From: a virus | Lineage: Duplodnaviria > Caudoviricetes | DNA: 64,000 nt | Strand: one strand, 5' to 3' | IMG/VR virus record: IMGVR_UViG_3300035498_000732 | Location: 1-64,000 of that record | Shown here: one piece after another, positions 4,304-60,412 of the stretch | How positions within the stretch are numbered: the first letter of the stretch is position 1 | Layout of the letters: each line of letters starts with the position of its first letter | Program-made: the position numbers and the translations under genes | The notes under the pieces: model-generated | The model's database searches: none | Seen by the model: only the letters and a program-made list of their open reading frames with translations | Told to the model about the DNA's origin: nothing

Positions 4304-6832
4304 CTAAACATACCGTATTGATACATTCTCCTTATTTATTCCACCAGATTCAGAAGTATCATAAGTTGCTTTTACTTTAGAAGCAGTATCATAAAATCCT
4401 GTATAATCTGTCTTGTCATATACATATGCTAATTGATCTACCCTATCAGCAATATTACACTGATTTCTTGAAGATTTATTAACGTTCTTATTTATTACTT
4501 CTTTAGCAATACCATCATTACTTCTAAAATCATTATACCATCTGTAAGCTTTATACCAATGATCTTGTATAGATGGTTCTTCTGAGATAGTTATGTCATT
4601 TAATTGATTAGCAATTCTATCTTGATCTGGAAGAATCTGCTCTTTAGATTTAAAGAATATTCTAAATAGAGCATCATCTATAATAAGACAAGTATTGGTA
4701 AGCTTATCATCTGCTACATATACAGTATCTAAATCCAAGATACTTATCTTGAATGATTTAAAGAAGTTGATAATATCCATTACATATACTTTTACTGCTT
4801 CGATGGATACGGCAGGTAATCCAGCAAATAGATAAGGAACAATTCCCATATCTACATACTCTTCAATACAGCATGCTATATTATATACTTGAGTGGCAAT
4901 CTTCTCATTTCTAGACTCTTCACTTACATTGACTAATGCTAAATACTTCTCATAGAGATCACTTCTCTTATATTGAAGAAATTCTGCATAACTGGTGGCT
5001 ATTGTACCTTCATCATCTATAACAAAGTAATCAAGATTTATTCTAGTAAGCATAAGAGAATCATAGATCTTTTTATATAATCTATATATTCTAGCATTAT
5101 TAGCAGTCATCATTTCATGTACTACATGGTCATAGATATTCTTGTTATTTGTATAGACTTCCATAAGTTGAGTAAATGAGAAAATGCCATTAGACGGATC
5201 TTTCCATCCAGATATACCCATATCATCAAATGTCTTTACTCCAGTCTCCCAGAGATATGTAGCCAATTCAGATAAATCAGCTTCAAAATTAAATCCCAAT
5301 ATCTTAAGACTTTCATCTACATCTGTAATTATAACATCTTCTGTTCCATAATATACATGTGCTAAAGCATACATATATATGAATGCATCCATTATTGTAA
5401 CAGATGTATTCAATACTGGAACTTTAACAAGTAATAATGATTTATCGATATCATTATTCAGAAGCAAATTAATGAAGTATGTAATCTGGAATAGATATTC
5501 GGACATAGAGTATACAGATTTGATAGACATATATTTAGTCCTGAGCATATTGAAATTATACTCAAGAATATCCTGTCTAACTTCATCTTCTGTATGATCT
5601 CCAATCCAATATTGATCTGATCTAGTCACCTCTTCATAGTCCAATATGTTAGCTTCAGTTTTTATAGCATCATCAGGTAATTCACTAATTCCAACTCTAA
5701 GAAACTCCAATGAATATGATGAATCCACATCTTCTACTATATCTCCAGCATCATTCTCCATAGTGGCAAAGATATAATTACCATCTGCATCTTTCTTTCT
5801 ACTCTTTAAGAGATAGTATTTGAATATTTCTATATTATCAAAGCCAAATAGAGATACTATATCTATGATGCATCTATCTGTGGATTTATACTTGATTAAT
5901 TTATTGAGATTTCTCACGAGAGATATCTGATATCTTATTGGAATCTCTGGGAAAAATTTAACGCCAGAGGCTTCAAAGAGATATTGAATAGTTCTAATAT
6001 CGAATACATCCTTTCTAATGATATACTCTGGAATCTCGTTGATCATATCACACATAGTCTGAAGTATAATCATTACCATCATAAATTTCTCATAATAATC
6101 AGACTTATAATTGTATGCTTCATCATAATAAAATTTAAGATAAATAATTCGATTCACTTCCAATAGATCTTGGAATCTAGTTCTTAATTCTGTCTCATCA
6201 CATTCTCCCACATATAGTGGAGCGAATTTGCCAGCCTTTCTAGCATCATATATTCCTACTTTTCTTTTGCCAATGAATCTAAGATACTCTGCTTCTGGAT
6301 AGAGTTCTAATAGAGTATCTATTACTCCAGCATTCTCAAATGCTTTGATAATATCAGTATCATATCTATGGATATATGTACCATAATCTATATAATTCTT
6401 AAGACTATCTGGCACTATATCTTCTGGTAACAGAATACCGTCTTGACCCATTGGTGGAAGCCCATTTAATTTACGATAGTACTCATTCTCTTCCTCGTAG
6501 CTGTCAATATATGATTCCCTGATGCTACTAGTAAGCATATCTCTATACTCTTCTGGAATCAGATCATTATTAGCAGACCATTGATAGATCTCTTTGCTAG
6601 TAATACTTGGAATCTTAGATATTTCGTTCTCCCCGAATTTATACATAGCAAAAGTAGCGAATCCATCTACAGATGCAAGATAAAGATCAGATCTAACAAG
6701 AGATGCTTCTGTCTCTTGATTATCTGCTTCTACATCATCTTTTAGAACTACTCTATCTGCAATTATTTGCTTGCAATTATATATAATTTCATCAAGCATA
6801 GGGGTGTCTGTTAATACTTTTTCAATTTCCAT
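4304..6832 (-). CDS. Putative baseplate wedge protein
   Basis: Segment LIKYKSTDRCIIDIVSLFGF resembles P2 gpI-type KGT motif; late promoter 6858-6869. Confidence 0.6.
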   Translation of the reverse strand: MEIEKVLTDTPMLDEIIYNCKQIIADRVVLKDDVEADNQETEASLVRSDLYLASVDGFATFAMYKFGENEISKIPSITSKEIYQWSANNDLIPEEYRDMLTSSIRESYIDSYEEENEYYRKLNGLPPMGQDGILLPEDIVPDSLKNYIDYGTYIHRYDTDIIKAFENAGVIDTLLELYPEAEYLRFIGKRKVGIYDARKAGKFAPLYVGECDETELRTRFQDLLEVNRIIYLKFYYDEAYNYKSDYYEKFMMVMIILQTMCDMINEIPEYIIRKDVFDIRTIQYLFEASGVKFFPEIPIRYQISLVRNLNKLIKYKSTDRCIIDIVSLFGFDNIEIFKYYLLKSRKKDADGNYIFATMENDAGDIVEDVDSSYSLEFLRVGISELPDDAIKTEANILDYEEVTRSDQYWIGDHTEDEVRQDILEYNFNMLRTKYMSIKSVYSMSEYLFQITYFINLLLNNDIDKSLLLVKVPVLNTSVTIMDAFIYMYALAHVYYGTEDVIITDVDESLKILGFNFEADLSELATYLWETGVKTFDDMGISGWKDPSNGIFSFTQLMEVYTNNKNIYDHVVHEMMTANNARIYRLYKKIYDSLMLTRINLDYFVIDDEGTIATSYAEFLQYKRSDLYEKYLALVNVSEESRNEKIATQVYNIACCIEEYVDMGIVPYLFAGLPAVSIEAVKVYVMDIINFFKSFKISILDLDTVYVADDKLTNTCLIIDDALFRIFFKSKEQILPDQDRIANQLNDITISEEPSIQDHWYKAYRWYNDFRSNDGIAKEVINKNVNKSSRNQCNIADRVDQLAYVYDKTDYTGFYDTASKVKATYDTSESGGINKENVSIRYV

Positions 6833-32077: not shown

Positions 32078-32175
32078 AAGTCTATTGGAGCTCGCTGATT
32101 ATGGCGAGCTTCTTTTTTATCAGGGATTTTTTTTTTACATTTATATAATTATTAATAATTTGGAGGATAATAGTT

Positions 32176-33579
32176 ATGGGATATTTTGCTGATAACTTCG
32201 ATTATGTACTTGAAAGTATTCAAGTAGTGCATGAAGTATATTTTGGTAAAACCAAAGAAGTTCTTGCAATAGAAAAAGCTATTCATAATCTTAGAGAACC
32301 ATATTTAAGTGGAAAGAATAAGAATAATAGTCCTTTAGCAAACTCTCTTCGCCTTGACCCAAATAAGAGAAAACTAGAGGATGCTATATGTAATGCATTT
32401 GGATTTTCAGATACATTTATATCTATACAAAATTCTTATACCCAAAATGCATATACTCAGCCCACATCGTATTCTATCGATCTAGGATCTGGTAAATTAA
32501 ATAGATCAGCTAGAAGGGCTAGTTCAAAAGTAAAAGGATATAGATTTGATCCTAAAGATAACATTGTATTTACATTAACCATGTTTTCTGGAGTGATTCT
32601 TAATCCAGAATATACTGATGCAGAATTGACAGCAATTATACTTCATGAGATTGGGCATAACTTTACAGCTACTAGTGAGAGAGGAACGAGAATTCTTACA
32701 GCTATTCCTGTATTAGCTTCTTTTATTAGATGCATGGCAGATATAGTTGCTCAAATATTGCAATATACAGCTCAAGGAATAGTAGCTATAGGTGCAGTTC
32801 CAGCACTCATACAAGAATTTATTGAAGATATTGTATTCGGAGCAAATGCCACTAGAACTATTGGAGGAAGATTTAGTAGACTCTTTGATAATTGGCTAAA
32901 AGATTTGCAGGAGAAAAATCCAGGAATACTTATGATAATTGGATCTTATTCATATATCATGAATATATATACGGATATTATTGCAACCATGCAATATTTC
33001 TGCAGCCTATTTCCAAATTATTTTCTTCTTCCAGTTGATATGATTGGAAGATTTGTTAGAGGCCTAGGTAGTCCAACTGGATATGCTGATGAGAAATTTG
33101 CAGATTCATTTCCTAGAATGTATGGATATGGCCCAGAGCTTGTATCAGCATTAGATAAAATGGCACTGCAACCAAATAGTTCATTTGAAAAAGCAGCTCA
33201 AGAATTAATTCTTCCACTGCAAGCAGTAGCCTCAATATATTGCACACCATATTGGATGATGGTTTATTTATTTGATGAGCATCCATATACATCTGACAGA
33301 GCTAAATTTATGGTGCAAGACCTTAAGGCCGAATTAAATGATAAATCATGTACTCTTAGTCCAGCTACTAAAAAGCAAATGATTCAAGATGCAGAGAAAA
33401 TTCAGGAAGAATTAGATGCATATTTGGATAGTGCATCTACTATTAAAGCATCTAAAGAATTAGGAATTAGATCTTGGCAAAATGCTATGCAAGCAGTATT
33501 TGGAGGATCTATTAAAGGTAAAATTAAAGCAAGAAATGTAAATAAAGATATTAATAGATTCTTTGATGACTTGGATTAA
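32176..33579 (+). CDS. Zn metalloprotease, M48-like, membrane-associated, late
   Basis: ILHEIGH, DEKFAD, HPYTSDR, hydrophobic helices; late promoter 32136-32147. Confidence 0.8.
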   Translation: MGYFADNFDYVLESIQVVHEVYFGKTKEVLAIEKAIHNLREPYLSGKNKNNSPLANSLRLDPNKRKLEDAICNAFGFSDTFISIQNSYTQNAYTQPTSYSIDLGSGKLNRSARRASSKVKGYRFDPKDNIVFTLTMFSGVILNPEYTDAELTAIILHEIGHNFTATSERGTRILTAIPVLASFIRCMADIVAQILQYTAQGIVAIGAVPALIQEFIEDIVFGANATRTIGGRFSRLFDNWLKDLQEKNPGILMIIGSYSYIMNIYTDIIATMQYFCSLFPNYFLLPVDMIGRFVRGLGSPTGYADEKFADSFPRMYGYGPELVSALDKMALQPNSSFEKAAQELILPLQAVASIYCTPYWMMVYLFDEHPYTSDRAKFMVQDLKAELNDKSCTLSPATKKQMIQDAEKIQEELDAYLDSASTIKASKELGIRSWQNAMQAVFGGSIKGKIKARNVNKDINRFFDDLD

Positions 33580-33607
33580 AATAAGGAGTGCTATAATAGC
33601 ACTCCTT
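33576..33607. terminator. Terminator duplicated at 34191-34222
   Basis: AAGGAGTGCTA/TAGCACTCCTT hairpin; 31 of 32 nt identical between copies. Confidence 0.85.
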
Positions 33608-33711
33608 CTTTATTTCTTTAAATAGTCAATATTTGATACAAAATCGTTTTTTTTTTTTGAACGTATTTTTAATATTATATATAATACTTGTAAGGAGGTA
33701 CTACTTTAATT

Positions 33712-34194
33712 ATGATAGATATGAATGGCAGCATTGATGAGATTATGAATGAATGTGATATTATTGTAGAATCGAAGAAATCTAGTATAGGAGCAGAAAA
33801 AATAAATTTTCAGAATATTGTTAATCAGCTGCAAGCGATTATGCCTAATGGCTGGAAAAAAGGAATATTTATGGCTGAATATACATCTGGAAGTTATAGC
33901 ATGAAATGCTATGCAGATACTGGAAAAGGCTATAAAATTTGTAATTCCAGAGATATATCTAATGCATTTAAAAATATTAATAAAGAGCTTAATAGTTCTA
34001 GGGATAGTTTGGATACAGATCCATGGTATTCAATTACTATTCATTTTGATAAATCTGGCAAGTTTAAATCAGAATTTGATTATACAAGTCATGATGGAGA
34101 TGTATTGGCATACAAAAAGAAATGGGAAAATAAATATATTGGAAAGAAATCTACTAATGAATCTGTTTTTGAGTCATTATTTAGTCAGATTTAA
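33712..34194 (+). CDS. Leader-fused YezG/EsaG-like (DUF600) immunity-domain protein
   Basis: IVNQLQAIMPNGWKKGIFMAEY...PWYSITIHFDKSGKFKSEFDY...WENKY resembles DUF600. N-leader and C-tail are shared with 34227-34907. Confidence 0.8.
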   Translation: MIDMNGSIDEIMNECDIIVESKKSSIGAEKINFQNIVNQLQAIMPNGWKKGIFMAEYTSGSYSMKCYADTGKGYKICNSRDISNAFKNINKELNSSRDSLDTDPWYSITIHFDKSGKFKSEFDYTSHDGDVLAYKKKWENKYIGKKSTNESVFESLFSQI

Positions 34195-34226
34195 AATAAG
34201 GAGTGCTATTATAGCACTCCTTTTTC

Positions 34227-34907
34227 TTATACTAAATTAAGTAAGTCATCAAAAATAGATGATTCATTAGCTGCTTTCTTTTTATCACGCTTTCTATCAT
34301 ATCGTGCTTCTCGTTTATCTTGCATCATTTTTTCATGCGCAGCTAATGATGATCTATACGCATAATCATCTTTATTTTTCATAGGGCCATTCCCATTTCT
34401 GCCATCCATAATACTACTTCTTGCAGTTTTTGAATAGTATTTTCCATAATCATGGTCATGCGTACCTTTTTCAGCTCCTCTAGCATTGGAATATGCAAGT
34501 TCTGCTTCACCTTTTACTTCAGCAATATAATCGCATTCACTCATTATATTCACAATACTCATGTTCATATCAATCATTGACTCATTTGCTGTTTTTCTAG
34601 TGGCCCTATCAACAGATTTATGGAAATTTCCTTTACCTTTTGTATTATATTGATTATCAACTCTATTTCTTCTTCTTTCATAATCCAAAGATGTTTTCAT
34701 TGGTCTACGGGTGCCAGGTTCATCTGATCCTTTGCTTCTTGCCATTTTTTCCATTGCACCGGCATCTTTTCCATAACCATGATCATGAGTTAATTTAGCA
34801 TAATGCCTTCCAGTTTCATAGCCAGCTTCTGCCTCACCCTTTAACTCAGCAATGTAATCGCATTCATTCATGATATTCTCAATACTCATATTCATATCAA
34901 TCATCAT
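34227..34907 (-). CDS. Tandem leader-cargo protein (two basic units), putative head-internal protein
   Basis: MIDMNMSIxNIMxECDYIAE occurs twice (starts 34904 and 34577); K/R-rich cargo; late promoter 34968-34979. Confidence 0.75.
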   Translation of the reverse strand: MMIDMNMSIENIMNECDYIAELKGEAEAGYETGRHYAKLTHDHGYGKDAGAMEKMARSKGSDEPGTRRPMKTSLDYERRRNRVDNQYNTKGKGNFHKSVDRATRKTANESMIDMNMSIVNIMSECDYIAEVKGEAELAYSNARGAEKGTHDHDYGKYYSKTARSSIMDGRNGNGPMKNKDDYAYRSSLAAHEKMMQDKREARYDRKRDKKKAANESSIFDDLLNLV

Positions 34908-35015
34908 CAGTATCCTCCATATAATATATTATATTTGTAATTTATGGTAATACATATCAAGTCATATTAATATTATGTAAAAAAAAAAATATTTTCTCGC
35001 CCCTCTAATTACCTG

Positions 35016-35053: not shown

Positions 35054-38000
35054 ATGGCTATGTTTAATGGTATTAAATACGTGAAAAATCTTACTAAATC
35101 ATTTGGATATGCTATGGTAGATGTAGTTGGAGATATGAATCCAACTTTAAAATCTTTTACTGAGACAAATCAGGAACTTGGCAAAGAATTATATGCTACT
35201 GTTACTGATTGGAAAGGTACAGTAAAGAAAGCTAAAACTGCTATAGTAGAGAGTGATGTATATGAATTTGCTAAGACCTATAAAGAGAATCTATTCGAAG
35301 ATTTAAAAAATGGCACTTTCTATAATAAAGCTCGTAAAGATGAATATGAAGTAAGATTATCTGGATGGTCTGATGAACAGCTCAAAGAAGACTTTGGCGA
35401 TATGTTTGACGATGATGATGACATCAATTTTGATGATTGGGATGAAGATGATCTTAGATCTGATTTATTTATCGCAGAAAGCATGGATGATGTAGGAGAA
35501 AAGATTTCTGCTGCAAATGCAGAAGTTACTACAAAGAGTGCAGAATATATTGTACGTGGCCAGAAAGAGTCTACAAAAATATTATATCAGCAGAATAATG
35601 CATTGATGGGCCAAGCATTAAAAGGAATGGCTGCTATTAATTCAAACCTTGGACAATTAGCAGGTATGCCAGAGATGATGCAGGTTCAAGTAAATAATGC
35701 ATCTAAATTCTTTGAAGATACCACAGGACGTTTAGATCATATTACTGAATTATTAGAGAATATTTCCAATAATACAAATCTATCTAATGAATTCAATCAA
35801 TCTAATGAAAAGAGTGATGATTTTACTTTTAGTGATATCATTGACTCTAAGGGAATGCCTAATCTCAAGAAGTATTTTTCTGTAATTAAGAAAAATATAG
35901 CTAATAGTTCTTCTGAGTTTGATATGCTTGGAAACCTATTTGGTGGTGGTAATGTGGCACTCACATTTGCTGCATCTCCATTAGAAGAACTAATGAAAGC
36001 TGCGGTTAAACAAGTTATTCCTAAAGTACTATCATCATCTATGGATAGATTTAATAGTACACTACAAGGATTCTTTGGATCATTAATATCTAAGATTAAT
36101 GGAGGCTATGGATCAGATAATCCAATTATAAATTGGGTGTCAAAGATATTTGGTATCGATTCATCTCTAAATACAGATATTGATCCATCCAGATATGAGA
36201 AAGGGAAAGTTGCATGGGATGGAGTATCTAGAAAAGCATTAGTAGAAGTTATCCCAGGGCAATTATCTAAGATTGTATCGGCATTAACAGGAGAGTCTCC
36301 ATTAGTATTTGATCCAGAATCTGGAACAATGAAGTCCATAACCGATATATATGATAATGCTAAAAATAGAGTTAAGAACTCTGCTAATTATGCTGGTAGC
36401 GATGTAAGAGCACAGATATATGATGTGCTTGATAAGTCAAAGTATTCATTTAGAAGCTATAATGAGAAGAAAAGATTTGAAGATGATCTTAATAGATTTT
36501 TTATGTATGCTTTTAATGCTGGTGGTATAGATGGCAGAGCTATTAAGAGAAGAGGAGAAGGTGGACTTTCAGATATTGGTATAGACAATAGCAAATTACT
36601 TGAGGGAATATTTGAGAAGATATCTGAAACAGAAGAAGGACGTAATTCATTATTAAATCTTAATAGAAGAATCCTTAGAGAAAGAGACAGCTTATCCAAC
36701 CATACTAAATATATGGAGAGAAAGGGCTCCATTGAATCTTACTTGTCAAATGGCATGTTTGATGATTATTTATATGAATTTGAATCAGATGATAATAAGA
36801 AATTAAGAGCTGCTGGCTATAGTACAATGGATTCATTATCTGGGGTTCAGACATTTGCTAAACAAATTGATGATTATGGCCATAATATATTCTATTATCT
36901 GCAAGAGCAATTAATGCGCTTAGATAAGATATATGAGTTCACAGACTATATGGTTGAGAATGGAGTCAATGGTGATTGGATTCCTAGAAGTGATTTAGAT
37001 CAGGATAGACATCTTATTCTTACTGGCGGAAGTACTATTGATAATAATAGATTGATAAGAGCCAGAATAATTACTCCTAGTGGCCATTACGTTAGACGTC
37101 CTCCAAGTAAGCTTAATGAAATTGAACCTGATGAATATCTTGAAAAGACCACTGCAAAATATATTCTTGATGACTATAATAGAAGACAGTCAGAAAATTA
37201 TATAAATGAAAGAAACAGCTATAGACAAGATAATCCAGATTTCATGGAGACTTATAATGATGATACATCTGGAGAATTTAGTTTTAAGGTAGATGTAGAA
37301 AGGGATATTGAAAATAGAGAAGAGAAGAACAGAGATAAAAATTGGATAGACAGATTATTATCAGAGAAGACACTTGAAGGTAAATTAGGTGTCTTTCAAG
37401 AAAAGACTCAAGATTTTCTCAATAAGCCACTCTTATGGGTTAGCAATATGCTTGATAGTGCAAATGAGAAAGTATATAAGTTAATATATGGGACTGATAT
37501 TGAGAAAGACCTTGAAGAGAAAGGACTTATAGGAATTCTTTCTGATAGTATTCATAATACATTTGATAATGTAAATCTCTGGATTGATGATAATATTCTT
37601 GCTCCATTAAAAGCAAAACTTGGCTTAAGAGGTGAAGAAGGTGGCTTATTAACCAAGGTTGCTGATGTAATGGGCTGGGATATTGAAAAATTCAAAAGAG
37701 ATAAAGCAAGAGGAATCTTTGGCACATATGATGAAGATACCAAGACTAGATCTGGTGGATTACTTGGTGACTATATGCAAAGTGTCAAAGATGCTGCTAA
37801 AGATGTGGCTAAATGGGGCACAGGTAGTGTCAGAGATGTACGAGATACAGTATCTAATGGACTTGGATTAAATGAAATAGTAAATCCATATGCTGATACC
37901 GAGACCGAAGCAGGATCATCATATGACCATAGTAATGCTATTATATCTGCATTGAATAATGCTAGTATCAAAGCTGATTATGATCCAGTACAAGCCGGAT

Positions 38001-41000
38001 ATGATATGTATGATCAGATATTTGGAAATTCTGAGCCAGAAGCTCCAAAACCAAAAAATAAATACATCAATGAGGAAAATGAAAATAGAGTAGCCGAAAT
38101 GCTTAATAGCATTAATGGTTATGCTGTAGGTGGACAGGTTAAGAAGACAGGTATTGCTGCTGTATCTGAGGGTGAACTTATTATACCATCTGAGCTTAAT
38201 CCATATTATAAAGGCACTACAAATAAAGCTCAACAGATGAAGGATGAAGATAATGCCGTAAAGAAATTCTTTGGTAAATATGCTTCAGGAACTACTGATG
38301 TTGGAGATGGCAATAATGGTTATATCATCAATATAGCTATCAATAAGGTTGCTGATAAGCTCAAGAAAGCAAATACTACTAGAGAAGAAATTGCTCAATA
38401 TCTTCAGGACAATCCTCCGGATAAAGAGTTGGATGCAGATGGCGAGATTTCTTATTATGTAAATCTGGCTAAGAAATACTTAAATAAGAAGATTTCTGAA
38501 TATGCTATCAATAAGCTTACAGGCGCTAAGAAGAAGATTGTAAAGTACGATAATAGTGCTGGAAATTATACTCTTTCTGATGGCACTGTAATGACTATGA
38601 AAGCCGGTGAGTATGTAAAGAAAGTTGGTGGAGAAGCTAAATTATTTGCCAGCAATTCCAAAAGCTTCCTTGGAGATTCATTTGGTCAACTTGGTAGTGC
38701 ATTTAAGAGTGTAGCTGAAGTATATCATAGATCTACAGATAATAGAAAGGGAAGCGATACTCCAGAAAGCCAAGCATTTGATGAAATGATTGATGATGTG
38801 AAAGAAAACTTCACTAAAGACTATGCTGGAGCTACTACCGTAGGAGCTGGAATTGGTGGGCTTGCATCATTAATTACTGGAGCTGTAGGTGGTCCTCTTC
38901 TTGGAGCTGCTGTTGGTGGAGCTGTTGGACTTACATTGAAGTCTAATAAGGTTCAGGATTGGTTATTTGGTAAAGAAGTAGACACTGATGAAGGAAAGAA
39001 ATTAGAAGGAGGAGTTTTATCAGAGCAAGCATCTAAATTTATAAAAGAGAAATTACCAGATCTTGCTAAGTTTGGTTTAGTAGGTGGTGCTGCTGGTACT
39101 ATAACTGGTCATCCACTTCTTGGTACATTTATAGGATCAGGTATTGGATTTGCAAAGAATTCTGAGAAATTCCAGAGCTTATTATTCAATACTACCAATA
39201 AACAAGGTCATACTACTAAAGGTCTCTTTAATATGACATCTGAGCAATTCAATGATATGATAGCAAAGAGACTTCCTAAGATGGGAGCTGGAGCTATTGC
39301 TGGATTAGCACTCGGGCCATTTGGTTTAGTGCCTAACCTTGTTATTGGATCTGCTATTGGATTTGCATCAGATACAAATACATTTAAGGATACATTGCTT
39401 GGTAAGGTAAATGAGAAAACCAATAAACGTGAAGGTGGACTCATAGAAGAACTTACTAAGACTATCTTCAAACCATTTGTGAATTTTGGTAAGAATACAG
39501 TTGATAGACTTACAAAATGGCTTGATGATGAAATCATGGGTCGTATTTCTAAATCTATTGAGCCAATTGCCCATTACTTTGAAACTCAAGGTTTAAGATT
39601 TGCTAGATGGATTGGCAGAGGATTCAAGGGTGTTGGAAATGCAATTGGCGGTTCTACTACTGGTAGACGTATATATAGAAGAATCATTGAACCAGTTAGA
39701 AATGCTGCTGGAAATTTAGCTAATACAGCTATTGATATTGCTAAAGCGCCTATTACATTTGGAGCTAAAGCTCTTGAAAATAGAGCTATGGCTGGCCAAG
39801 CTCACGATATAAGACTAGGATATACTGATAATCTTACTATTGATGAAGTAATGGATCAGTATAAGAATAATCCATTCCTTACCAATTATGCAGATGGAAA
39901 TGTGCCTTTAGAGATAGAAAATACTAAAGATGCTAATATGTACAGAATGCAGGCAGGAGTATATGATCTTAAAAAGGCTGGTGATCTTAAGAGATTAAAA
40001 GATCTTCAAGGTGCTGTTGATGCTATGGGCAACATCAGCACTACTTATAAGCAAAAGCAGAAAAATATTATAGCAGAAATGAGAGATAAAACTCTCAATG
40101 ATTATAATATAAGACAGTCTAATAAAGATAGACTTGTTGGACTTGTAAAAGCTGGAAAGCTTAATGAAGATAATATTGATGAGTATCTGTCAGATATAAA
40201 AGCAGTTAATGGTGAATCATTCTCTTATGATGATAGAAATAAACTCAGAGAAGCATTACTTACCGGTGCAGGAAAGCTTGCTGATCTTAAGAGCGACTAT
40301 ACTACTCTTGATGAAAATGGTAAATCTGTATTTGAGAAAAACCAAAAGAAGATTATTGAACAGCAAATGAAAGATTTTGGTATTGCAGATGATAAGTTTG
40401 CTAAATTCATCTTTGGTAATCAAGTTCAAAGAGAAAGATTTGCAGAATTGCTTGGCAATACAATCAATAAGATGGAAGAAGAGAATATCCATGATGAAGA
40501 TAAATCTCCAGAAGAAAAGATTGGTGAATCTGTAGAAGATAATGTAAATAATCTTAATAATCATATGCAAGATCGCCATGATGAACTTATTGATCTTATC
40601 AAGCAAGCCATTAATACTATAGCTGCTAGAACTGGTGGTGAAAGACAGTTTGCTGAGAATGGTGATTATATCGGAGAAAATTCTCCTGTAAATTCTAAAG
40701 GCGCCACTAATAAAGCCAAAGATATAGTAGAAGATGCTGAGAAAAAAGCAAATGAAAGCTTAACCGATAATCCATCTGATAAATTTAAATTTGACCAGGA
40801 TTTGGCAAATGAAGACTATTTGAATGCTGCTGATGAAGCTAAGAAAAGACAAGATGATGCTACAGCAGATATAGAGAACTTCGCAACAGCTGCTACTGGT
40901 GGTAAAGTAAATAAGTCCGGTTTAGCTGCTGTATCAAAAGGCGAACTTATTCTTCCAGAATTTTATGGTAAATTTGCTGATGGTGGTATAATTGGTGCTT

Positions 41001-44000
41001 TGAAGGGTGATGGACTTAATATTCCTGGATATGGGAATATAAGGCTGAGACCTGAATTTGGTGGTACACCTAGAAATAAAACTATTACTAGTCTTGATGG
41101 TACTTATGTATATGATGAGGAAAGCCATGAATATGAAGCTGCTGATGCAGAGACAAGAGCTGCTGATGCAAAGAAAGAAAAGTTAAAAGATTCTCTTATT
41201 TCTATTCCTGATAAGCTCAATAATGTTATTGATGCCCTTGGTGGAACAGAAGATGCTGATGACAAAGAGAAAGAGAGTAATGGATTCTTATCCAGTATTC
41301 TTTCTATGCTTGGATTAACAGGAGCATCTGGTATTGGAGCTACTATTCTTAAATTTGCTAGTAAAGGCATTGGATTTGCTATGACTTTACTTGGTCCAAT
41401 TGCTGCAGCTGCTTTGATGGGAACATTCTTCTCTGGTAAACTTGATGGAATAATTAATACTTTTAGCAGTACTATAGGATCATACATAATGAAATTGCTT
41501 GGAGCTGATGAAGATGTAGATACTATTAAGAGTAATATCAGTCAAAGTGGAGAGAATGGTGAAGATGGAGCATCAGATATAGTTAAGTATTCATTGACTA
41601 AGGATTTCCTGAAAGGTGGTAAACACTTTAAAGCATTTTTTAGAAAAGCAAATGAAAAGCTTGCAAATAATAAGTTATTTAGAAATGCAACAGTTCTTAC
41701 CAAAGGAACTAATTTTGTATCTAATGCTTATAATACTATAGCTAATAAATTATTTGGCGGGGCTAAGGATGCTGCAGAAACAGTTGTAGAAGATAGTTCA
41801 GAAAGTCTTTGGGGCAGTTTCTTAGAGCATAATGGCGATAATGCAGCTAGTGCAATAATGAATGAAGGGGATGATTTAGCTAGAGCTGCAGCAAGTGGAA
41901 ATAAAGAAGGTTTATTGAAGAAATTCACAGGATTATTTAAGAATAAGAATGTTGAAACAGCTGCAGAGAGTGGAGTTGAGAAAGCCGCAGAATCTTCAAT
42001 ATTGCAGAGTGCATTAAAGTCTTCTAAAGAGGCTGTGTCTAAGGTTCTTGCTGCTATTGCTGGACATCTTCCAGAAGGATTAAAGAATAATATAAGCAAA
42101 ATTAAAGATGCTATTGATAATCTTATAGAGACTCAGGCAAAGAAAAAGGCTGAGAAAGATGGAGTTGAAAATGCAGCAAAACTCATTCCTCTCGTAGGAA
42201 AAGTTGTTACTGTAGCATTCTTTGTAGCTGATTATCTTACAGGATACAATAAAGCATCTAGTATACTTGGAGTAGAGAATCCTACAGCATGTGAAAAGGT
42301 TATATCTGGACTCGTAAATGGTTTTCTTGGAATTGGCTTCTTTACATCATTAATTCCTTCAAAGTTATTCATTACGACTATGATTGATGTAATTGGCCCA
42401 TTACTTGGAATTGATAGTACTGAATTAAAGCAGAGACGTCAAGAATATGCCGACAAAGTGGAATCATATAATGAAGAGAATGGTACAAATTACTCTATAG
42501 AGCAATACAATTCTAGTGTAAATGGTGAGAAGGGATTCTTTGAAAAGACTATTAGCAATGTCAAGTCATTATTTAGTAGCAAAGCTAGAACTACTAGAGA
42601 TAGTATGCTGGATAGTGATGGCAATGTAGTAGCTGGAGCACTTGATAAGACTACTAAGAGATGGAAGAAATTCTGGCAGAAGAAGGTTGATAATGGAATG
42701 GATCAATCTTATGCAGAAGCTCTCTATAGAAATGAGATCTTACATGATTCTAGTATGTCATTGACAGATGATTATATTGCTGATCTTCAAGAAAAGATTC
42801 AGAAATATCAGCAGACTAGTGGATCTCAGCAGATTCCTGATATTACTGTGGATCTTAATGGACTTATTAGGCATAATAAAGCCAATGGCCAAAAAGGTGC
42901 TAATGTAAGTTATGGTGATACAACTACAGCAGATTATGTAGGTAATTATGCTTTAGGCGGTATCATAAAGAAAACTGGATTAGCAGCACTCTCTAAGGGA
43001 GAGATGGTAGTTGATAATGCTAAAGATGCTATAAGTGCTATTACTAGTAAATTATTTGGTGGACTTGGAAATGTAGATATCAGTGGATATGAGTCAGTTA
43101 CAGATCTTGGTACATTTATTTCTGATCTGATGAATCTTGATGTAAAGACAAATGGATGGGAAGAGTTCTGGAAAAAGGCAGATGCTGATGATGAAGATTC
43201 AGGTGCTTTAGCTCCAATCAAGAAACTGATTAAGAGATTAATTGCATCTATGGTAGCTCCTGTATTTGCCATGAATATGTCTATGAATAGTGTTGCTGGT
43301 ACATTTAGTAATACACTTGGTACATCTAATACCACAGATACTAGTGATCAAACTACCACTACAACAAGTAGTAGCAGTGGATCAAAGTCATTATTATCTA
43401 TGGCGGCTAGTGCTGCAAAAGGAGTATTATCTAAAGTATCTGGCGGCATTAAGAAATTCTTTGGTGGCGGAACTGGCAAAGAAGATTATGATTCAGAAGA
43501 TGGTACATTTATTTCACAGATAAGTGATAAGTATGCCAATCTTAGCTATGGCAATAGTACATTTGCTGATGAAGGATGTGCACCTGCTACAGCTGCAATG
43601 TTTTTGAATAATACCATGGGTAATCAATATGGAGCAAGCATTGAAGATGCTGCTAAATATGCTGTATCTGGTGGATACAAAGTAGACAATGATGGTACTA
43701 AGGATCAATTCTTTAAGGACTACTTTACTACTAAGGGTATTGATACTGAATCTATTCAAAATTCTAAAGGAATTTATGATAGTATTGCTGCTGGTAAGCC
43801 TACTGTATTACTTGGGCAAGATGCAAAGAATACATCAAAGAAGAAATCTCCATTTGGGAAAGATCCTCATTATGTACTTGCTACTGGAGTAGATGAGAAT
43901 GGTAATATTATTGTAAATGATCCTGAAGCTAAGAAAGGCGGTAAAGCTTATAATAAGAGTATATTAAATGGAGTTAAGAATGCTATAGCTCCAAAGAAAA

Positions 44001-45628
44001 ATGGCGGTAGATCTGGATTAATGAAATCTAGATTGCTTAGTAAGCATTATGGCGGAGGAACTGCTCTTTCTGATATGCATATGGGTGAGAATGGTCTTAA
44101 TCTTCTCAAGAGTTTTGAGACATGCAAACTTACAGCATATAAAGGAGCTGGTGAATCAAATTGGACAATAGGCTGGGGCCACTGTGCATCTGATGTTAAA
44201 CAAGGCCAGACAATAACTCAATCTCAGGCTGATAATTACTTGAAGAAAGATGTTGTTGGCTCAGAAGATGCTGTAAAGAAGTATATGGCCAATGCATCAT
44301 TTACTCCAAATCAAAATCAGTTCGATGCATTAGTTGATTATGTATATAATAGAGGGTCTGGAGCAGCAAAAGAATTATTCAATAATTGTAAAACAGTTGA
44401 AGAGTTCTCCAATGGTATTTTGAAATATTGGGGGAGTAATACTGCATCTTACAAAGGAATAATGAATAGGCGTAAAGCCGAGTATAATTTGTTCAATTCC
44501 TCAAAAGATAATGTAGTTACAGATACTTCAGATTCATCTACTAGCACAGATTCAAGCAGTAGTTCATCCTCTGATGGTATTTCAGGACTGTTTACCAATG
44601 GAGTAAAGAAGATCCTCACATCCATGTATGGCAGTGATGTTGTTAATTTCGTATATGGAGATGATAGTGATGATGATGATAGTAGTAGTTCAGATGATAC
44701 ATCATCAACTGATACAACATCTTCTACCAGTGCTGCAACTATAACTGACAATGGTGCAACTGTAAGTTCATCTACAACTATAGGTGAAGCCGTAGCCAAA
44801 GATGCATATAATTACATAGGTAATAAGTATGTACTTGGTGGCAATGATCTTAATAATGGTATTGATTGCTCTGGATTTGCACAGCAATTGTACAAGAAGC
44901 AGGGATTTACAATACCAGAACGTCATTCATCTAATCAGTATACTGATAGTACTACTGGTAAAACAATTAGTGGAGGATCATTCAAAGATCTTAAACCTGG
45001 TGATGTAATGTTCTTCTCTAATAATGGAAAAGCTAGTGGAATACATCATGTTGGTATATATGTCGGCAATGATACAATGGTTCATGCCTCCAATAGTTCT
45101 CCATATCCAAAGGGCGGTGTCAAAGAAACTAAGAATCTTTCAACCAACTCATATTATGTGAAAGAATATGTAGGTGCTAAGAGGTATGGATCTGGTTCTG
45201 GACTCATTGATCAGAGTAAGGTTGTTGATGCAAACAGATTATTTGGCGGAGCTGCATCATCTACAGAAGGATCGATTTCTTCTACTAATGCTGTAAAAGC
45301 TCGTAAAGCTAAAGAGAATAGTACTGCTTATCAGATGTCTGATGGTATTAAGTCTATTGCCAGTAGTATTTCAAATACTGATTTATCATCTATTACAGAT
45401 TCTATTAGCAGCTTGCTTGAAGTACTTAATAAGATTGCAGACAATACATCAGTTATTGCTACTATATGTGATCTTATTAAGAAGATTATACCTGACAATG
45501 GTGATAATGAATCATCATCTACTACTAAAGCAGATACTACTTTAAGTTCTTCTGGCAATAAGGCTACTACAGACGATGAGAAAGTTACTCAAGTTGTAGA
45601 CATTCTTATGAAATTAGCTCAAGCTTAA
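35054..45628 (+). CDS. Tape-measure protein with C-terminal C39-like peptidase, GH24 lysozyme and NlpC/P60 domains
   Basis: 3524 aa; Gly/Ala hydrophobic stretches; GCAP..HYV..NDP; FE..LTAY..WTIGWGH; DCSGF..HVGIY..HAS; late promoter 35016-35027. Confidence 0.9.
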   Translation: MAMFNGIKYVKNLTKSFGYAMVDVVGDMNPTLKSFTETNQELGKELYATVTDWKGTVKKAKTAIVESDVYEFAKTYKENLFEDLKNGTFYNKARKDEYEVRLSGWSDEQLKEDFGDMFDDDDDINFDDWDEDDLRSDLFIAESMDDVGEKISAANAEVTTKSAEYIVRGQKESTKILYQQNNALMGQALKGMAAINSNLGQLAGMPEMMQVQVNNASKFFEDTTGRLDHITELLENISNNTNLSNEFNQSNEKSDDFTFSDIIDSKGMPNLKKYFSVIKKNIANSSSEFDMLGNLFGGGNVALTFAASPLEELMKAAVKQVIPKVLSSSMDRFNSTLQGFFGSLISKINGGYGSDNPIINWVSKIFGIDSSLNTDIDPSRYEKGKVAWDGVSRKALVEVIPGQLSKIVSALTGESPLVFDPESGTMKSITDIYDNAKNRVKNSANYAGSDVRAQIYDVLDKSKYSFRSYNEKKRFEDDLNRFFMYAFNAGGIDGRAIKRRGEGGLSDIGIDNSKLLEGIFEKISETEEGRNSLLNLNRRILRERDSLSNHTKYMERKGSIESYLSNGMFDDYLYEFESDDNKKLRAAGYSTMDSLSGVQTFAKQIDDYGHNIFYYLQEQLMRLDKIYEFTDYMVENGVNGDWIPRSDLDQDRHLILTGGSTIDNNRLIRARIITPSGHYVRRPPSKLNEIEPDEYLEKTTAKYILDDYNRRQSENYINERNSYRQDNPDFMETYNDDTSGEFSFKVDVERDIENREEKNRDKNWIDRLLSEKTLEGKLGVFQEKTQDFLNKPLLWVSNMLDSANEKVYKLIYGTDIEKDLEEKGLIGILSDSIHNTFDNVNLWIDDNILAPLKAKLGLRGEEGGLLTKVADVMGWDIEKFKRDKARGIFGTYDEDTKTRSGGLLGDYMQSVKDAAKDVAKWGTGSVRDVRDTVSNGLGLNEIVNPYADTETEAGSSYDHSNAIISALNNASIKADYDPVQAGYDMYDQIFGNSEPEAPKPKNKYINEENENRVAEMLNSINGYAVGGQVKKTGIAAVSEGELIIPSELNPYYKGTTNKAQQMKDEDNAVKKFFGKYASGTTDVGDGNNGYIINIAINKVADKLKKANTTREEIAQYLQDNPPDKELDADGEISYYVNLAKKYLNKKISEYAINKLTGAKKKIVKYDNSAGNYTLSDGTVMTMKAGEYVKKVGGEAKLFASNSKSFLGDSFGQLGSAFKSVAEVYHRSTDNRKGSDTPESQAFDEMIDDVKENFTKDYAGATTVGAGIGGLASLITGAVGGPLLGAAVGGAVGLTLKSNKVQDWLFGKEVDTDEGKKLEGGVLSEQASKFIKEKLPDLAKFGLVGGAAGTITGHPLLGTFIGSGIGFAKNSEKFQSLLFNTTNKQGHTTKGLFNMTSEQFNDMIAKRLPKMGAGAIAGLALGPFGLVPNLVIGSAIGFASDTNTFKDTLLGKVNEKTNKREGGLIEELTKTIFKPFVNFGKNTVDRLTKWLDDEIMGRISKSIEPIAHYFETQGLRFARWIGRGFKGVGNAIGGSTTGRRIYRRIIEPVRNAAGNLANTAIDIAKAPITFGAKALENRAMAGQAHDIRLGYTDNLTIDEVMDQYKNNPFLTNYADGNVPLEIENTKDANMYRMQAGVYDLKKAGDLKRLKDLQGAVDAMGNISTTYKQKQKNIIAEMRDKTLNDYNIRQSNKDRLVGLVKAGKLNEDNIDEYLSDIKAVNGESFSYDDRNKLREALLTGAGKLADLKSDYTTLDENGKSVFEKNQKKIIEQQMKDFGIADDKFAKFIFGNQVQRERFAELLGNTINKMEEENIHDEDKSPEEKIGESVEDNVNNLNNHMQDRHDELIDLIKQAINTIAARTGGERQFAENGDYIGENSPVNSKGATNKAKDIVEDAEKKANESLTDNPSDKFKFDQDLANEDYLNAADEAKKRQDDATADIENFATAATGGKVNKSGLAAVSKGELILPEFYGKFADGGIIGALKGDGLNIPGYGNIRLRPEFGGTPRNKTITSLDGTYVYDEESHEYEAADAETRAADAKKEKLKDSLISIPDKLNNVIDALGGTEDADDKEKESNGFLSSILSMLGLTGASGIGATILKFASKGIGFAMTLLGPIAAAALMGTFFSGKLDGIINTFSSTIGSYIMKLLGADEDVDTIKSNISQSGENGEDGASDIVKYSLTKDFLKGGKHFKAFFRKANEKLANNKLFRNATVLTKGTNFVSNAYNTIANKLFGGAKDAAETVVEDSSESLWGSFLEHNGDNAASAIMNEGDDLARAAASGNKEGLLKKFTGLFKNKNVETAAESGVEKAAESSILQSALKSSKEAVSKVLAAIAGHLPEGLKNNISKIKDAIDNLIETQAKKKAEKDGVENAAKLIPLVGKVVTVAFFVADYLTGYNKASSILGVENPTACEKVISGLVNGFLGIGFFTSLIPSKLFITTMIDVIGPLLGIDSTELKQRRQEYADKVESYNEENGTNYSIEQYNSSVNGEKGFFEKTISNVKSLFSSKARTTRDSMLDSDGNVVAGALDKTTKRWKKFWQKKVDNGMDQSYAEALYRNEILHDSSMSLTDDYIADLQEKIQKYQQTSGSQQIPDITVDLNGLIRHNKANGQKGANVSYGDTTTADYVGNYALGGIIKKTGLAALSKGEMVVDNAKDAISAITSKLFGGLGNVDISGYESVTDLGTFISDLMNLDVKTNGWEEFWKKADADDEDSGALAPIKKLIKRLIASMVAPVFAMNMSMNSVAGTFSNTLGTSNTTDTSDQTTTTTSSSSGSKSLLSMAASAAKGVLSKVSGGIKKFFGGGTGKEDYDSEDGTFISQISDKYANLSYGNSTFADEGCAPATAAMFLNNTMGNQYGASIEDAAKYAVSGGYKVDNDGTKDQFFKDYFTTKGIDTESIQNSKGIYDSIAAGKPTVLLGQDAKNTSKKKSPFGKDPHYVLATGVDENGNIIVNDPEAKKGGKAYNKSILNGVKNAIAPKKNGGRSGLMKSRLLSKHYGGGTALSDMHMGENGLNLLKSFETCKLTAYKGAGESNWTIGWGHCASDVKQGQTITQSQADNYLKKDVVGSEDAVKKYMANASFTPNQNQFDALVDYVYNRGSGAAKELFNNCKTVEEFSNGILKYWGSNTASYKGIMNRRKAEYNLFNSSKDNVVTDTSDSSTSTDSSSSSSSDGISGLFTNGVKKILTSMYGSDVVNFVYGDDSDDDDSSSSDDTSSTDTTSSTSAATITDNGATVSSSTTIGEAVAKDAYNYIGNKYVLGGNDLNNGIDCSGFAQQLYKKQGFTIPERHSSNQYTDSTTGKTISGGSFKDLKPGDVMFFSNNGKASGIHHVGIYVGNDTMVHASNSSPYPKGGVKETKNLSTNSYYVKEYVGAKRYGSGSGLIDQSKVVDANRLFGGAASSTEGSISSTNAVKARKAKENSTAYQMSDGIKSIASSISNTDLSSITDSISSLLEVLNKIADNTSVIATICDLIKKIIPDNGDNESSSTTKADTTLSSSGNKATTDDEKVTQVVDILMKLAQA

Positions 45629-58127: not shown

Positions 58128-59255
58128 ATGGTATATGGAAGTATTTATGGTGCTTCTAGATATGGCGTAAGTGAGGCTCAGTTCAATCCTGACTATGCTA
58201 TGCCTGATGGACCATCATTGGTGGTCGAAGAGTCTATTAAATTCGACCAGAATATGTTTGATGTTATTATTGAACGTGATTTTGTAGAGTGTGCTGCTAT
58301 GCAGGGCGCTATTAGCGAATCCACTCTTTATGCTATTGATGAAAGCTTTGTTTCTGACGTTTGGGGAAGAGTTAAAGAGTTTATTGCTAAGGTAAAAGAA
58401 AAGATCGTATCTATTGCTAAGGCTGCTGCATTGAGAGTAAATGCATTCTTTACAAAAGATGGATCTGCTCTTGTTGAGAAGTATGGCCGTCAGTTTGATG
58501 CTGCTGATGTATCTAAGCTTGAAATCAAGGGATGGAGAGAGAAGAAAGAAAGCGGAAGTGGCATTCTTGCTTCATTAGGAAATACAAGTGAACTTTCTGT
58601 AGTTAAATCATATGAAGGTGCTATTACTGTCAGCACACAGAAGGAAAAAGATAAATTTGAAAAGGAGCATGGTGTAGATAAGGTATTATCTACATATCTT
58701 GGTGGCAAGAAGACTACGTATGCTACATTCACAAAAGATGCAGAGTCTAAAGTATTTAAGGATCCAGCTACTGTAAAAGCAAGCAAGATTAGAAATACAA
58801 TCAAAGATATCGTTTCTGGTAATGGAAAGAGCATTAATGAAATTACTGAAATCAAAGATACAACTGAAAAAGCATATTCCACAGCAGAAGAAGATGCTCA
58901 GAAACAGATAGATAAAGCTAGAAGTGATACATATGAAGATGATGCAGATGCTGGCAATGGCGGCAAAGGCAAGACATCTCAGGAAAAACATGATGCAGCT
59001 GTATTCCAGGCAGAGTGTGCTAAGTTTGTCATTAGTGAAAACTCGAAGGCTGTTAGTAAAGTATTTTCCACATATCTTGATATCTTAAAACTTGATCTGA
59101 AGCAAGCAAGGAAGGCATTTATTACTATTGCTTCTAAGGGAGCAGGCAAGGTTACCGAGTCTACATTGCTTGAGGCTGTACTTGATGCTGATGAGTATGA
59201 AGTAGATTCATTCTTTGATCAGTACAGCTATGACTTTGAAGAACTTATTTCATAA
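58128..59255 (+). CDS. Head-internal protein, paralog of 59279
   Basis: MVYGS(I/V)Y start; acidic propeptide then ES..W.RVKEFI.K; late promoter 58034-58045. Confidence 0.65.
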   Translation: MVYGSIYGASRYGVSEAQFNPDYAMPDGPSLVVEESIKFDQNMFDVIIERDFVECAAMQGAISESTLYAIDESFVSDVWGRVKEFIAKVKEKIVSIAKAAALRVNAFFTKDGSALVEKYGRQFDAADVSKLEIKGWREKKESGSGILASLGNTSELSVVKSYEGAITVSTQKEKDKFEKEHGVDKVLSTYLGGKKTTYATFTKDAESKVFKDPATVKASKIRNTIKDIVSGNGKSINEITEIKDTTEKAYSTAEEDAQKQIDKARSDTYEDDADAGNGGKGKTSQEKHDAAVFQAECAKFVISENSKAVSKVFSTYLDILKLDLKQARKAFITIASKGAGKVTESTLLEAVLDADEYEVDSFFDQYSYDFEELIS

Positions 59256-59278: not shown

Positions 59279-60412
59279 ATGGTATACGGAAGTGTATATA
59301 GTTTAAGGGAATCTGCATTGAACTATGTAGAGCCTTATGAATTTGATGATTCCATCTCCTTTACAGAGATGGGTGCTATTGCAGTTGCTGAATCTACAGA
59401 AGATTGGAACAGAATGATGAGAGCTATTGCTCTTACAGAGTTATCATATGTTGCAGAGGCAGGCCAGGAATTGATTTATGAGTCTGTAGATATCGAGGCA
59501 ATTAAAAATAAAGTAGTTAAGTGGTTTCAGAATCTTTGGGCTAAAATCCAGGGTATCGCAAAGACAGCTCTTGCTAAGTTTGCAAGCTTTGGCAAGAATG
59601 ATGAATCATTCATTGATAAATATTCTAAAGATATTTATACCGGTGAAGATAATATTCCAGATGGATTTTCATTTAAAGGATATAAATTCCATGAAAACCT
59701 CAAGAGTTTATCTGATGATGTAAAGTCCGAATATGAAAAAATTACTAACAGAGTTCCAAATAAAATAAAAGTAGTAAGTGGATACAAGAAATCAGCTGAT
59801 TCTAGTACAACAGGTAGCAGTGTTATTAATAAATTTTTATCAGAGTCTGATACTACATTTAGTGATCTTGAATCTAGTTTTAGAGCTTCAATTTGTGGAC
59901 ATGGATCTGGGAAAGTATCTGCTTCTGATTTTGGAAAGGAATTAGATAAATATTTTAGAGGAAGTTCAGCTAAAGTGTTTATTAATAAAAATGGTATCGA
60001 TGCTAAGAACTTAATATCTATTGTTAGTGGAGCTAAAGATGCTATTGATGCTGCTGAGGATGCCCGTGATACTGCAAAGGATACGATTGATGAATCAATC
60101 GATAAAGTGGATGAGGCTGCAGACAGCTTTAATGATACGCCTGAAGATTCTACAGATGCTGAAGCTGTAAAGCTTCAGTCTGCAAAGTCTAGATACTTTA
60201 CAAAATATTCTGGTTATTTAAAGAATATTGAGTCTGCTGTATCTATTTGGTTCTCGCATTATATTTCAGCACTCAAGGATCAGAATCGTCAGGCAAAGGC
60301 TATCTGTGTTAAGCTCGTAGGTTTTGCAAATGGTGTTGGCGGTAAGAAAGATCTTACAAAGAATGAAGCTGCTTCTATCTTAGAAGACCGTTTTGCAACT
60401 ATCTTTGATTAA
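59279..60412 (+). CDS. Head-internal protein, paralog of 58128
   Basis: Same architecture (YES..IK.KVVKWF.NLW.KI). Confidence 0.65.
   Translation: MVYGSVYSLRESALNYVEPYEFDDSISFTEMGAIAVAESTEDWNRMMRAIALTELSYVAEAGQELIYESVDIEAIKNKVVKWFQNLWAKIQGIAKTALAKFASFGKNDESFIDKYSKDIYTGEDNIPDGFSFKGYKFHENLKSLSDDVKSEYEKITNRVPNKIKVVSGYKKSADSSTTGSSVINKFLSESDTTFSDLESSFRASICGHGSGKVSASDFGKELDKYFRGSSAKVFINKNGIDAKNLISIVSGAKDAIDAAEDARDTAKDTIDESIDKVDEAADSFNDTPEDSTDAEAVKLQSAKSRYFTKYSGYLKNIESAVSIWFSHYISALKDQNRQAKAICVKLVGFANGVGGKKDLTKNEAASILEDRFATIFD

Follow-up and report, generated by a model that had tools for sequence, protein, structure and literature searches.

An EsaG/YezG-like immunity domain between the ends of a basic protein family: a candidate head-loading cassette in an AR9-like jumbo phage

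How does an immunity domain from bacterial toxin warfare come to stand, in a phage gene, between the two ends of an unrelated protein family, and what might those ends do? The question is raised by two convergent open reading frames (ORFs), 33712-34194 (+, 160 amino acids, aa) and 34227-34907 (-, 226 aa), which meet at one hairpin in the 64,000-nucleotide (nt) window analysed here, the first 64 kb of the 126,688-bp IMG/VR record IMGVR_UViG_3300035498_000732 (completeness estimate 52%, GC content ~33%). The first ORF encodes a DUF600 domain and the second a double-unit basic protein, and the two share an N-terminal leader and a C-terminal tail. EsaG of S. aureus and YezG of B. subtilis are DUF600 immunity proteins of the type VII-secreted nuclease toxins EsaD/YeeF, and EsaG inactivates the EsaD nuclease by splitting its nuclease fold (PMC9616950). 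It is proposed here, with chances that we judge to be about even, that the shared ends load ejection proteins of an AR9-like jumbo phage into the head as cleavable tags and that one of the cargoes is an anti-nuclease candidate. The record analysed is called G000 below, and a related 48-kb IMG/VR contig is called G001.

Leader, tail and what lies between them

The 20-aa leader, MIDMNxSIxxIMxECDxIxE, is present in three copies in the window and in five in the 126.7-kb record. It occupies aa 1-20 of the 33712 gene and aa 2-21 and 111-130 of the 34227 gene, in agreement with the original prediction, which had noticed three copies in the two convergent genes, and it recurs in a second convergent pair outside the window (genome 121771, +, 132 aa, and 122647, -, 143 aa). 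A hidden Markov model (HMM) of the leader built from family members of other genomes only matches the N-terminus of the DUF600 protein with 31.9 bits (independent E-value 6e-10), the best non-family match in the genome scoring 2.3 bits. The leader is acidic and amphipathic and ends in I-V-E in the DUF600 protein. Its codons in the DUF600 gene are separated from those of the other leader genes by 2-5 synonymous changes, which argues that selection acts on the peptide and not on the DNA. The tail is likewise acidic and reads (N/K)-E-S-S-I-F-D-D-L-L-x-L-V in the basic proteins, of which the tail of the DUF600 protein, NESVFESLFSQI (N-E-S-V-F-E-S-L-F-S-Q-I), is a gapped variant. This variant is missed by an HMM of the tail (2.7 bits only), which matches the leader family and no other protein of the genome. 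In pairwise local alignment the last 16 aa of the DUF600 protein score 49 against the family tails, where the maximum is 34 among 120 other C-termini and all of 8000 random 16-mers stay below 38, so that the shared tail first proposed from the two genes is upheld. AlphaFold2 (AF2) models the leader of the DUF600 protein with low confidence and the tail as a helix.

Residues 31-145 of the 33712 protein are a true DUF600/YezG/EsaG domain, as had been suspected, according to profile, structural-database and fold searches alike. Pfam PF04634 (YezG-like) matches aa 33-151 with 41.5 bits (cut-off 21.7), and a PDB search with a profile of 92 homologues retrieves BH3703 (E 3e-12) and EsaG (8GUO, E 5e-10). 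The AF2 model has a core (aa 31-145) with a predicted local distance difference test (pLDDT) value of ~95, and its top six Foldseek matches are solely BH3703 and EsaG (probability 1.0, template modelling score ~0.6 over the whole 160 aa). The best 150 DUF600 homologues, taken from an exhaustive, profile-free search of 1.8 billion representatives, are nearly all ~125 aa long and span query residues 30-145 only. Neither leader nor tail is found on any of these 150, and hence on no cellular YezG homologue among them, a point on which the original prediction had staked itself; the leader, a 10-aa linker and a 15-aa C-terminal extension are additions unique to the 33712 protein. A protein search with its region 1-40 recovered the query alone, a scan of genome contigs found no close DUF600 relatives, and no homologue of the protein was detected in AR9 or 50,697 deposited phage genomes at tblastn sensitivity. 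The phage domain is also basic (isoelectric point, pI, 9.0; net charge +4), whereas 91 homologues have a median pI of 5.2 and a median net charge of -3, and this positive charge could reflect life beside DNA in the capsid or an altered function.

Some other DUF600 proteins are extended at the N-terminus in a different way. A YezG-like protein encoded at 5977-6462 of the viral contig L015 (IMGVR_UViG_3300001487_000187; Pfam E 9e-8) has an extension of its own, ~35 aa long, whose motif, hydrophobic-x-x-K-x-x-x-G-x-I...L-L-x-x-A, is weakly SHOCT-like and recurs at the N-termini of several unrelated neighbours. Viral-contig scans for two other N-extended DUF600 proteins gave no match. The few basic homologues (pI 8.6-9.3) include nearly all of those that are extended at the N-terminus (P0011, P0031, P0072, P0073, P0075, P0016), which hints at a phage-borne, extended, basic DUF600 subgroup.

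The usual content of the leader genes is a different one. The 226-aa protein (pI 9.4) contains two basic units of ~90 aa, which are homologues of one another and of the second pair's proteins; with these, two G001 proteins and ~23 further metagenomic proteins they make up one family of ~29 relatives. The earlier statement that the middles are unrelated thus stands for the DUF600 domain against the basic family and falls for the basic units themselves. Residues I2, M4, N5, S7, I11, E14, C15, D16, I18, A19 and E20 of the leader and His 42 are invariant in the basic family and the tail is nearly so, whereas the 90-130 aa between leader and tail are hypervariable (pI 9.3-10.1). The AF2 model of a basic unit is all helices without a fold (pLDDT 60), and an ESM Atlas search with it returned nothing above chance. 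The basic leader proteins have no Pfam or PHROG match, and PF12699, the phiKZ-type inner-body family, matches neither the 226-aa nor the 143-aa protein. A type VII substrate identity (WXG/LXG-like) of the basic proteins was rejected on their basic character, low-confidence structure and lack of a Pfam match. Scans of IMG/VR by leader profile and DNA pattern for other cargoes behind the leader turned up G001 only, and two metagenome scans for the leader had no match; the scans for other cargoes proposed at the outset have brought no new cargo type to light, and further ones may exist.

Glutamate stands at both cargo boundaries in every parsable member of the ~29 relatives. At the end of the leader it is the invariant E20, and in a 27-row alignment the P3 residue is always I/F/V/M/L, giving I-A-E, I-V-E, F-N-E, V-N-E, M-N-E or L-D-E; the leader ends in I-A-E in one subgroup and in I-A-(F/V/M)-N-E or I-A-L-D-E in the other. 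The Glu before the tail is followed by Ser, rarely by Gly or Ala. Three double-unit proteins are known, each with a different junction. In G000, A-N-E-S leads straight into a full second leader, and in P0180 and P0189 the tail of the first unit runs through ..L-D-E or ..L-Y-E directly to the start of the second cargo. Despite these differences a Glu lies exactly before unit 2 in 3/3, as would be expected of a polyprotein with excisable linkers.

The record also encodes a protease of the kind that in T4 cuts after Glu. The protein encoded at genome 101005-101943 (+), with the major capsid gene a few kb away, matches Peptidase_S77, the T4 gp21-type prohead protease, with 38-39 bits (cut-off 27) and more weakly the S80 family of phiKZ gp175. 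Possible maturation sites occur in two head proteins: N-I-E-S, M-N-E-S-G and L-N-E-S-G in a ~120-aa C-terminal extension of the protease itself, and M-N-E twice in the first 101 aa of the capsid protein (genome 94997-96727, -). Across the proteome N-E-S is observed 22 times against 12.4 expected (1.8-fold), two of the copies being the N-E-S-G of the protease extension, although the enrichment becomes weak once the leader family's own copies are removed and is a hint only. The similarity of a stretch of this extension to the family tail finds no support from the tail HMM.

Cassettes and their surroundings

By its gene content the record is an AR9-like jumbo phage. It carries RNA-polymerase subunit genes, several PHROGs annotated as 'virion structural protein', a phiKZ-type major head protein and a zincin common to AR9 and phiR1-37 (tblastn), and the AR9 late-promoter consensus AACA-N6-TA is found 36-53 nt upstream of many of its genes.

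The leader genes are self-contained cassettes consisting of promoter, leader, cargo, tail and hairpin terminator (Table 1). Every one of them is preceded by a run of 10-12 T and then xACA/AACG-N6-TA, ~52 nt before the ATG. The pattern of at least 8 T, 0-3 nt and AC[AG]T occurs at only five sites in the 126.7 kb, the five being the upstream regions of the zincin gene and of the four leader genes. In AR9 the late-promoter consensus is AACA-N6-TA/G (PMC5312081); the core of the cassette promoter is one mismatch away from it and lies at the distance usual for the late-consensus promoters of the genome; the genes to which the original prediction ascribed late-type promoters may be expressed late. 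A sigma-70-like element, TTGAAC-17-TATAAT (10/12 match), overlaps the DUF600 promoter at 33657-33685 (+), a match at background frequency in this AT-rich DNA.

At the other end of the cassettes, the hairpin GGAGTGCTA-loop-TAGCACTCC has just three copies in the genome, one 3' of the zincin gene and one between the two members of each convergent pair, and it also lies 3' of both G001 leader genes, once with compensatory changes. The 615-bp DUF600 cassette is bracketed by two copies of this terminator, each 35 nt long. In G001 no DUF600 gene intervenes between the zincin gene and a basic leader gene on which it directly converges. The DUF600 cassette thus has the look of an insertion, or of an exchanged cargo, brought about by recombination at the borders of the cassettes.

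Table 1. Features of the DUF600 cassette and adjoining genes (window coordinates)
Feature	Position	Strand	Remarks
Poly-T (10) + ACAT..TA promoter-like element upstream of the zincin gene	32127..32149	+	element type shared by all four leader genes
Zincin-like metallopeptidase, 467 aa, HEIGH motif	32176..33579	+	weak Peptidase_M48, E 0.011; phrog_2767
Terminator hairpin GGAGTGCTA-loop-TAGCACTCC, left copy of 35-nt direct repeat	33576..33610	.	family D3, 94% identical, spacing 615
Poly-T (12) + AACG-N6-TA core, ~52 nt upstream of ATG; candidate cassette promoter	33647..33675	+	one mismatch from AR9 late consensus
Leader aa 1-20 of the DUF600 cassette, ending I-V-E	33712..33771	+	independent leader HMM, 31.9 bits
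DUF600/YezG/EsaG-like domain, aa 31-145, pI 9.0	33802..34146	+	PF04634, PDB profile, AF2, Foldseek
C-terminal tail, aa 149-160 (NES + VFESLFSQI)	34156..34191	+	pairwise alignment; helix predicted, aa 150-158
Right copy of 35-nt repeat; shared bidirectional terminator hairpin of the convergent pair	34191..34225	.	
Double-unit basic cargo gene, 226 aa	34227..34907	-	87-nt repeat D1, 85% identical, spacing 327
Leader 1 of the 226-aa gene, followed by basic unit 1 and A-N-E-S	34845..34904	-	
Leader 2 of the 226-aa gene, followed by basic unit 2	34518..34577	-	
Tail of the 226-aa gene	34230..34268	-	
Poly-T (11) + TACA-N6-TA promoter-like element of the 226-aa gene	34966..34989	-	

The first leader pair sits between the zincin gene and the gene of a 3524-aa lysozyme/NlpC-P60 protein, the second adjoins tail-fibre cassettes, and in G001 a leader gene is located after the terminase. 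By tblastn the zincin is homologous to phiR1-37 g204, a 'phage structural protein', and to AR9 g051, a 'zincin protease'; group-1 jumbo phages conserve it, and a role in protein cleavage during maturation has been suggested for it (PMC7824862). A shorter paralogue of 410 aa (genome 106021-107253, -; phrog_2767, E 2e-11) keeps the H-E-x-G-H motif. The 3524-aa protein (window 35054-45628, +) has, near its C-terminus, domains of the Peptidase_C39-like, phage lysozyme and NlpC/P60 types, its gene has a consensus late promoter of its own (AACA-N6-TA, 38 nt upstream), and it is probably, from its domains, a virion-borne wall-degrading or tape-measure-like giant.

Shared ends of other kinds were also noticed in this genome. 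Mildly tail-like C-termini are found by pairwise alignment in genome 118515-119255 (-; score 34), window 59279-60412 (+; 32) and the zincin (29), with null frequencies per 16-mer of 0.025%, 0.1% and 0.6%, respectively. They exceed the chance expectation for 120 C-termini, but none is convincing; those of 118515-119255 and 59279-60412 may be diverged tail tags on other proteins. Four otherwise dissimilar proteins (window 58128-59255 and 59279-60412; genome 96964-98190, -, and 110200-110625, -) start with M-(V/I)-Y-G-x-(I/V)-(Y/V), which may be a second shared N-terminal tag of the phage. One of the four, of 408 aa, adjoins the capsid gene and has a scaffold-like look, being extremely acidic and D/G-rich with a repeated N-P-D-Y-T.

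Proposed head loading and its alternatives

The arrangement is reminiscent of the internal proteins (IPs) of phage T4. T4 IPI, IPII, IPIII and Alt carry the capsid-targeting sequence (CTS), which is removed by the prohead protease gp21, and IPI* inhibits the GmrSD nuclease (PMC3012670, PMC8442874, PMC7411985). Proteases of the gp21 family cut after Glu, in T4 at the motif hydrophobic-X-Glu, and the T4 CTS ends in I-A-E (PMC8442874), while the internal proteins are 'highly basic' and remain with the DNA (PMC8442874, PMC3012670). Both systems join a short shared N-terminal leader to a variable, mostly basic cargo, both leaders end in hydrophobic-X-Glu (I-A-E in the T4 CTS and in G000 leaders), both phages encode a gp21-family (S77) protease and in both the cargo genes are highly polymorphic between relatives. 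One cargo here is plausibly a nuclease inhibitor, and a packaged DUF600 protein would parallel IPI*. The differences are that beyond the I-A-E tripeptide there is no homology to the CTS or the IPs, that the leader is 20 aa long with an invariant E-C-D and is complemented by a conserved C-terminal tail with its preceding Glu and by tandem double-unit precursors, and that the system belongs to the AR9/phiKZ lineage and is known from sequence alone.

A closer lineage precedent is offered by SPN3US, whose ejection paralogues gp53 and gp54 have an identical N-terminal 15 aa with cleavage motifs. The C-terminal propeptide of the SPN3US protease has been proposed as a prohead-core targeting signal, and gp53/gp54 and the phiKZ proteins gp93-95 (PF12699) are cut by gp245/gp175 (PMC5694885, PMC7411985). 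These phages belong to the same broad group, which has a pair of multisubunit RNA polymerases and a protease resembling gp21; as in the present family, their paralogues share N-terminal residues with Glu motifs, copy number is plastic between relatives and a C-terminal targeting signal has been proposed, there in the protease propeptide. They differ in that the leader proteins have no PF12699 or PHROG match and that the propeptides of SPN3US/phiKZ are 111-130 aa long, have the motif A/S/G-X-E and are not known to carry a foreign domain as cargo.

In the proposed mechanism the precursor would be docked to the core of the assembling prohead by its leader, its tail or the two together, and the gp21-type serine prohead protease would then cut after the conserved Glu that ends the leader (hydrophobic-X-Glu) and, probably, a second time after the Glu preceding the tail. 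The cuts would free the cargo inside the head and split double-unit proteins into their units. The usual cargo, hypervariable, unstructured and basic, would stay with the packed DNA and, as T4 IPII/IPIII do, exit with it. One cassette would have had this cargo swapped, by recombination at its borders, for a DUF600/EsaG-type immunity domain, which would be carried into the cell together with the DNA and bind a nuclease of the His-Me-finger kind (a type VII toxin or one used in defence), in the manner of T4 IPI* against GmrSD.

Head loading is favoured because a DUF600 domain that is complete in itself carries an added leader and tail, neither of which is present in its 150 nearest relatives, and because ~29 relatives keep leader, tail and boundary Glu around a hypervariable cargo that is basic, like the T4 IPs. 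It also gains from the SPN3US precedent, from the position of the leader genes among virion genes, from a promoter core placed like that of the genome's other late-consensus promoters and from the sharing of the unusual promoter with a zincin that has a structural-protein homologue in phiR1-37. Cleavage is suggested by the fit of the leader end to the T4 gp21 pattern together with the S77 protease, and by the Glu kept before unit 2 at three differing fusion junctions. The capsid-tag reading thus draws circumstantial support from several directions.

Several points weigh against it. Since no member of the basic family has a homologue in AR9 or the 50,697 deposited phage genomes, the family has no tie to a measured virion. 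The invariant Cys of the E-C-D motif would be odd in a discarded peptide, the leader has twice the length of the T4 CTS, and the T4 internal proteins offer no precedent for a tag at the C-terminus. The P3 residue of the tail site (A/K/T/S/Y/H/V/N) shows no consistent fit to the T4 motif or to that of phiKZ/SPN3US (A/S/G-X-E), and AF2 models both leader and tail with low confidence. In every cassette the promoter core is one mismatch from AACA, and the poly-T run is absent from the other structural genes, including that of the capsid. No EsaD/YeeF-type nuclease (PF13930) is matched in the available 126.7 kb of G000, about half of the genome, or in G001; orphan immunity genes are common in bacteria. 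Finally, promoter sharing and adjacency would make the zincin a possible alternative processing enzyme.

This last point can be taken further, to a module centred on the zincin, in which the leader/tail proteins are substrates of the zincin or else its regulators, the invariant leader Cys serving, for example, as a cysteine-switch-type ligand of the catalytic zinc. The poly-T/ACAT promoter type confined to the zincin gene and the four leader genes, the adjacency of a leader gene to the zincin in both G000 and G001, and the conservation and proposed maturation role of the zincin in group-1 jumbo phages (PMC7824862) all agree with such a module. The second leader loci of both phages, however, are not next to a zincin, AR9 has the zincin and no leader family, and the zincin's own C-terminus is only marginally tail-like. 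A Glu at P1 is moreover a hallmark of gp21-type proteases and not of M48/SprT-like zincins, and altogether a zincin-centred module seems distinctly improbable. A complex prediction of zincin, basic leader protein and Zn scored 0.02 against a mark of 0.32 and is evidence neither way.

The same invariant Cys, and the conservation of the leader above that of the cargo, would suit leader and tail as permanent, uncleaved ends of small late proteins that are not packaged, acting in oligomerisation or in docking outside the capsid, on the replication/transcription machinery or the membrane; the basic members would be nucleoid-associated and the DUF600 chimera would borrow their ends. Both ends are predicted to be helical, and the P3 residue of the tail site is not protease-like. 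In the fusions, on the other hand, unit 1 of G000 lacks most of the tail and unit 2 of the other two lacks the leader, while the boundary Glu is kept in all, so that excisable linkers fit better than obligatory structural ends; a gp21-type protease is encoded and the leader ends exactly in its motif. On balance the chances of permanent ends are low. A slim chance is given to cytoplasmic, non-packaged anti-defence or host-takeover proteins whose acidic ends would serve the basic middle as regulators, degrons or masks, the DUF600 copy shielding the infected cell from neighbours' type VII nuclease toxins during the long jumbo-phage cycle. DUF600 immunity proteins do normally act in the cytoplasm of the producer (PMC9616950), and packaging is so far an inference, but a cytoplasmic role gives no reason why an immunity domain should need both ends of an unrelated basic family and leaves the basic phage DUF600 domain and the kept boundary Glu unexplained.

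A possible two-ended address for an immunity protein

The fullest form of the head-loading proposal, in which a bipartite, protease-trimmed cassette has recruited an EsaG/YezG domain as a packed and injected anti-nuclease behind a two-ended capsid address, is doubtful at present. Such a pre-made immunity protein would neutralise, from the first second of infection, the type VII secretion system toxin of a neighbour or a toxin-derived abortive-infection or defence nuclease. The phage protein is of the same family as EsaG/YezG by Pfam profile, PDB profile search and fold, and differs from them as a phage-encoded orphan that is basic (pI 9.0 vs median 5.2), has a short form of ~115 aa and is fused to a phage leader and tail.

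Modular cassettes of a related design are known elsewhere. Arbiol et al. in 2010 reportedly described PeSL mobile regulatory cassettes of T4-type phages, in which a cargo ORF lies between a conserved promoter and a stem-loop; here too the cargo ORF is flanked by a conserved promoter and a stem-loop, and border repeats could mediate swapping, whereas the conserved borders take in coding sequence, namely leader and tail, and the promoter is AR9 late-like. Encapsulin cargo-loading peptides, short C-terminal peptides that direct unrelated cargo into an HK97-fold shell, may serve as an analogy only. What appears new in the present case is the two-ended tag, its setting in the AR9 group and the immunity domain as cargo.

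Whatever the function, the locus is an instance of clean modular gene shuffling in an uncultivated phage lineage, with promoter, leader, cargo, tail and terminator as the modules and 35-nt repeats as the flanks. If the head-loading reading is true, the T4 principle of a capsid-targeting sequence plus a variable internal protein would extend, in a two-ended form, to the AR9/phiKZ group, and leader and tail would make up a small, transferable pair of tags with which foreign proteins could be loaded into the heads of jumbo phages. This would also be the first case of a polymorphic-toxin immunity domain as an injected phage cargo, linking type VII warfare between bacteria to phage counter-defence, and the DUF600 cargo would be a handle for finding the nuclease that the phage fears.

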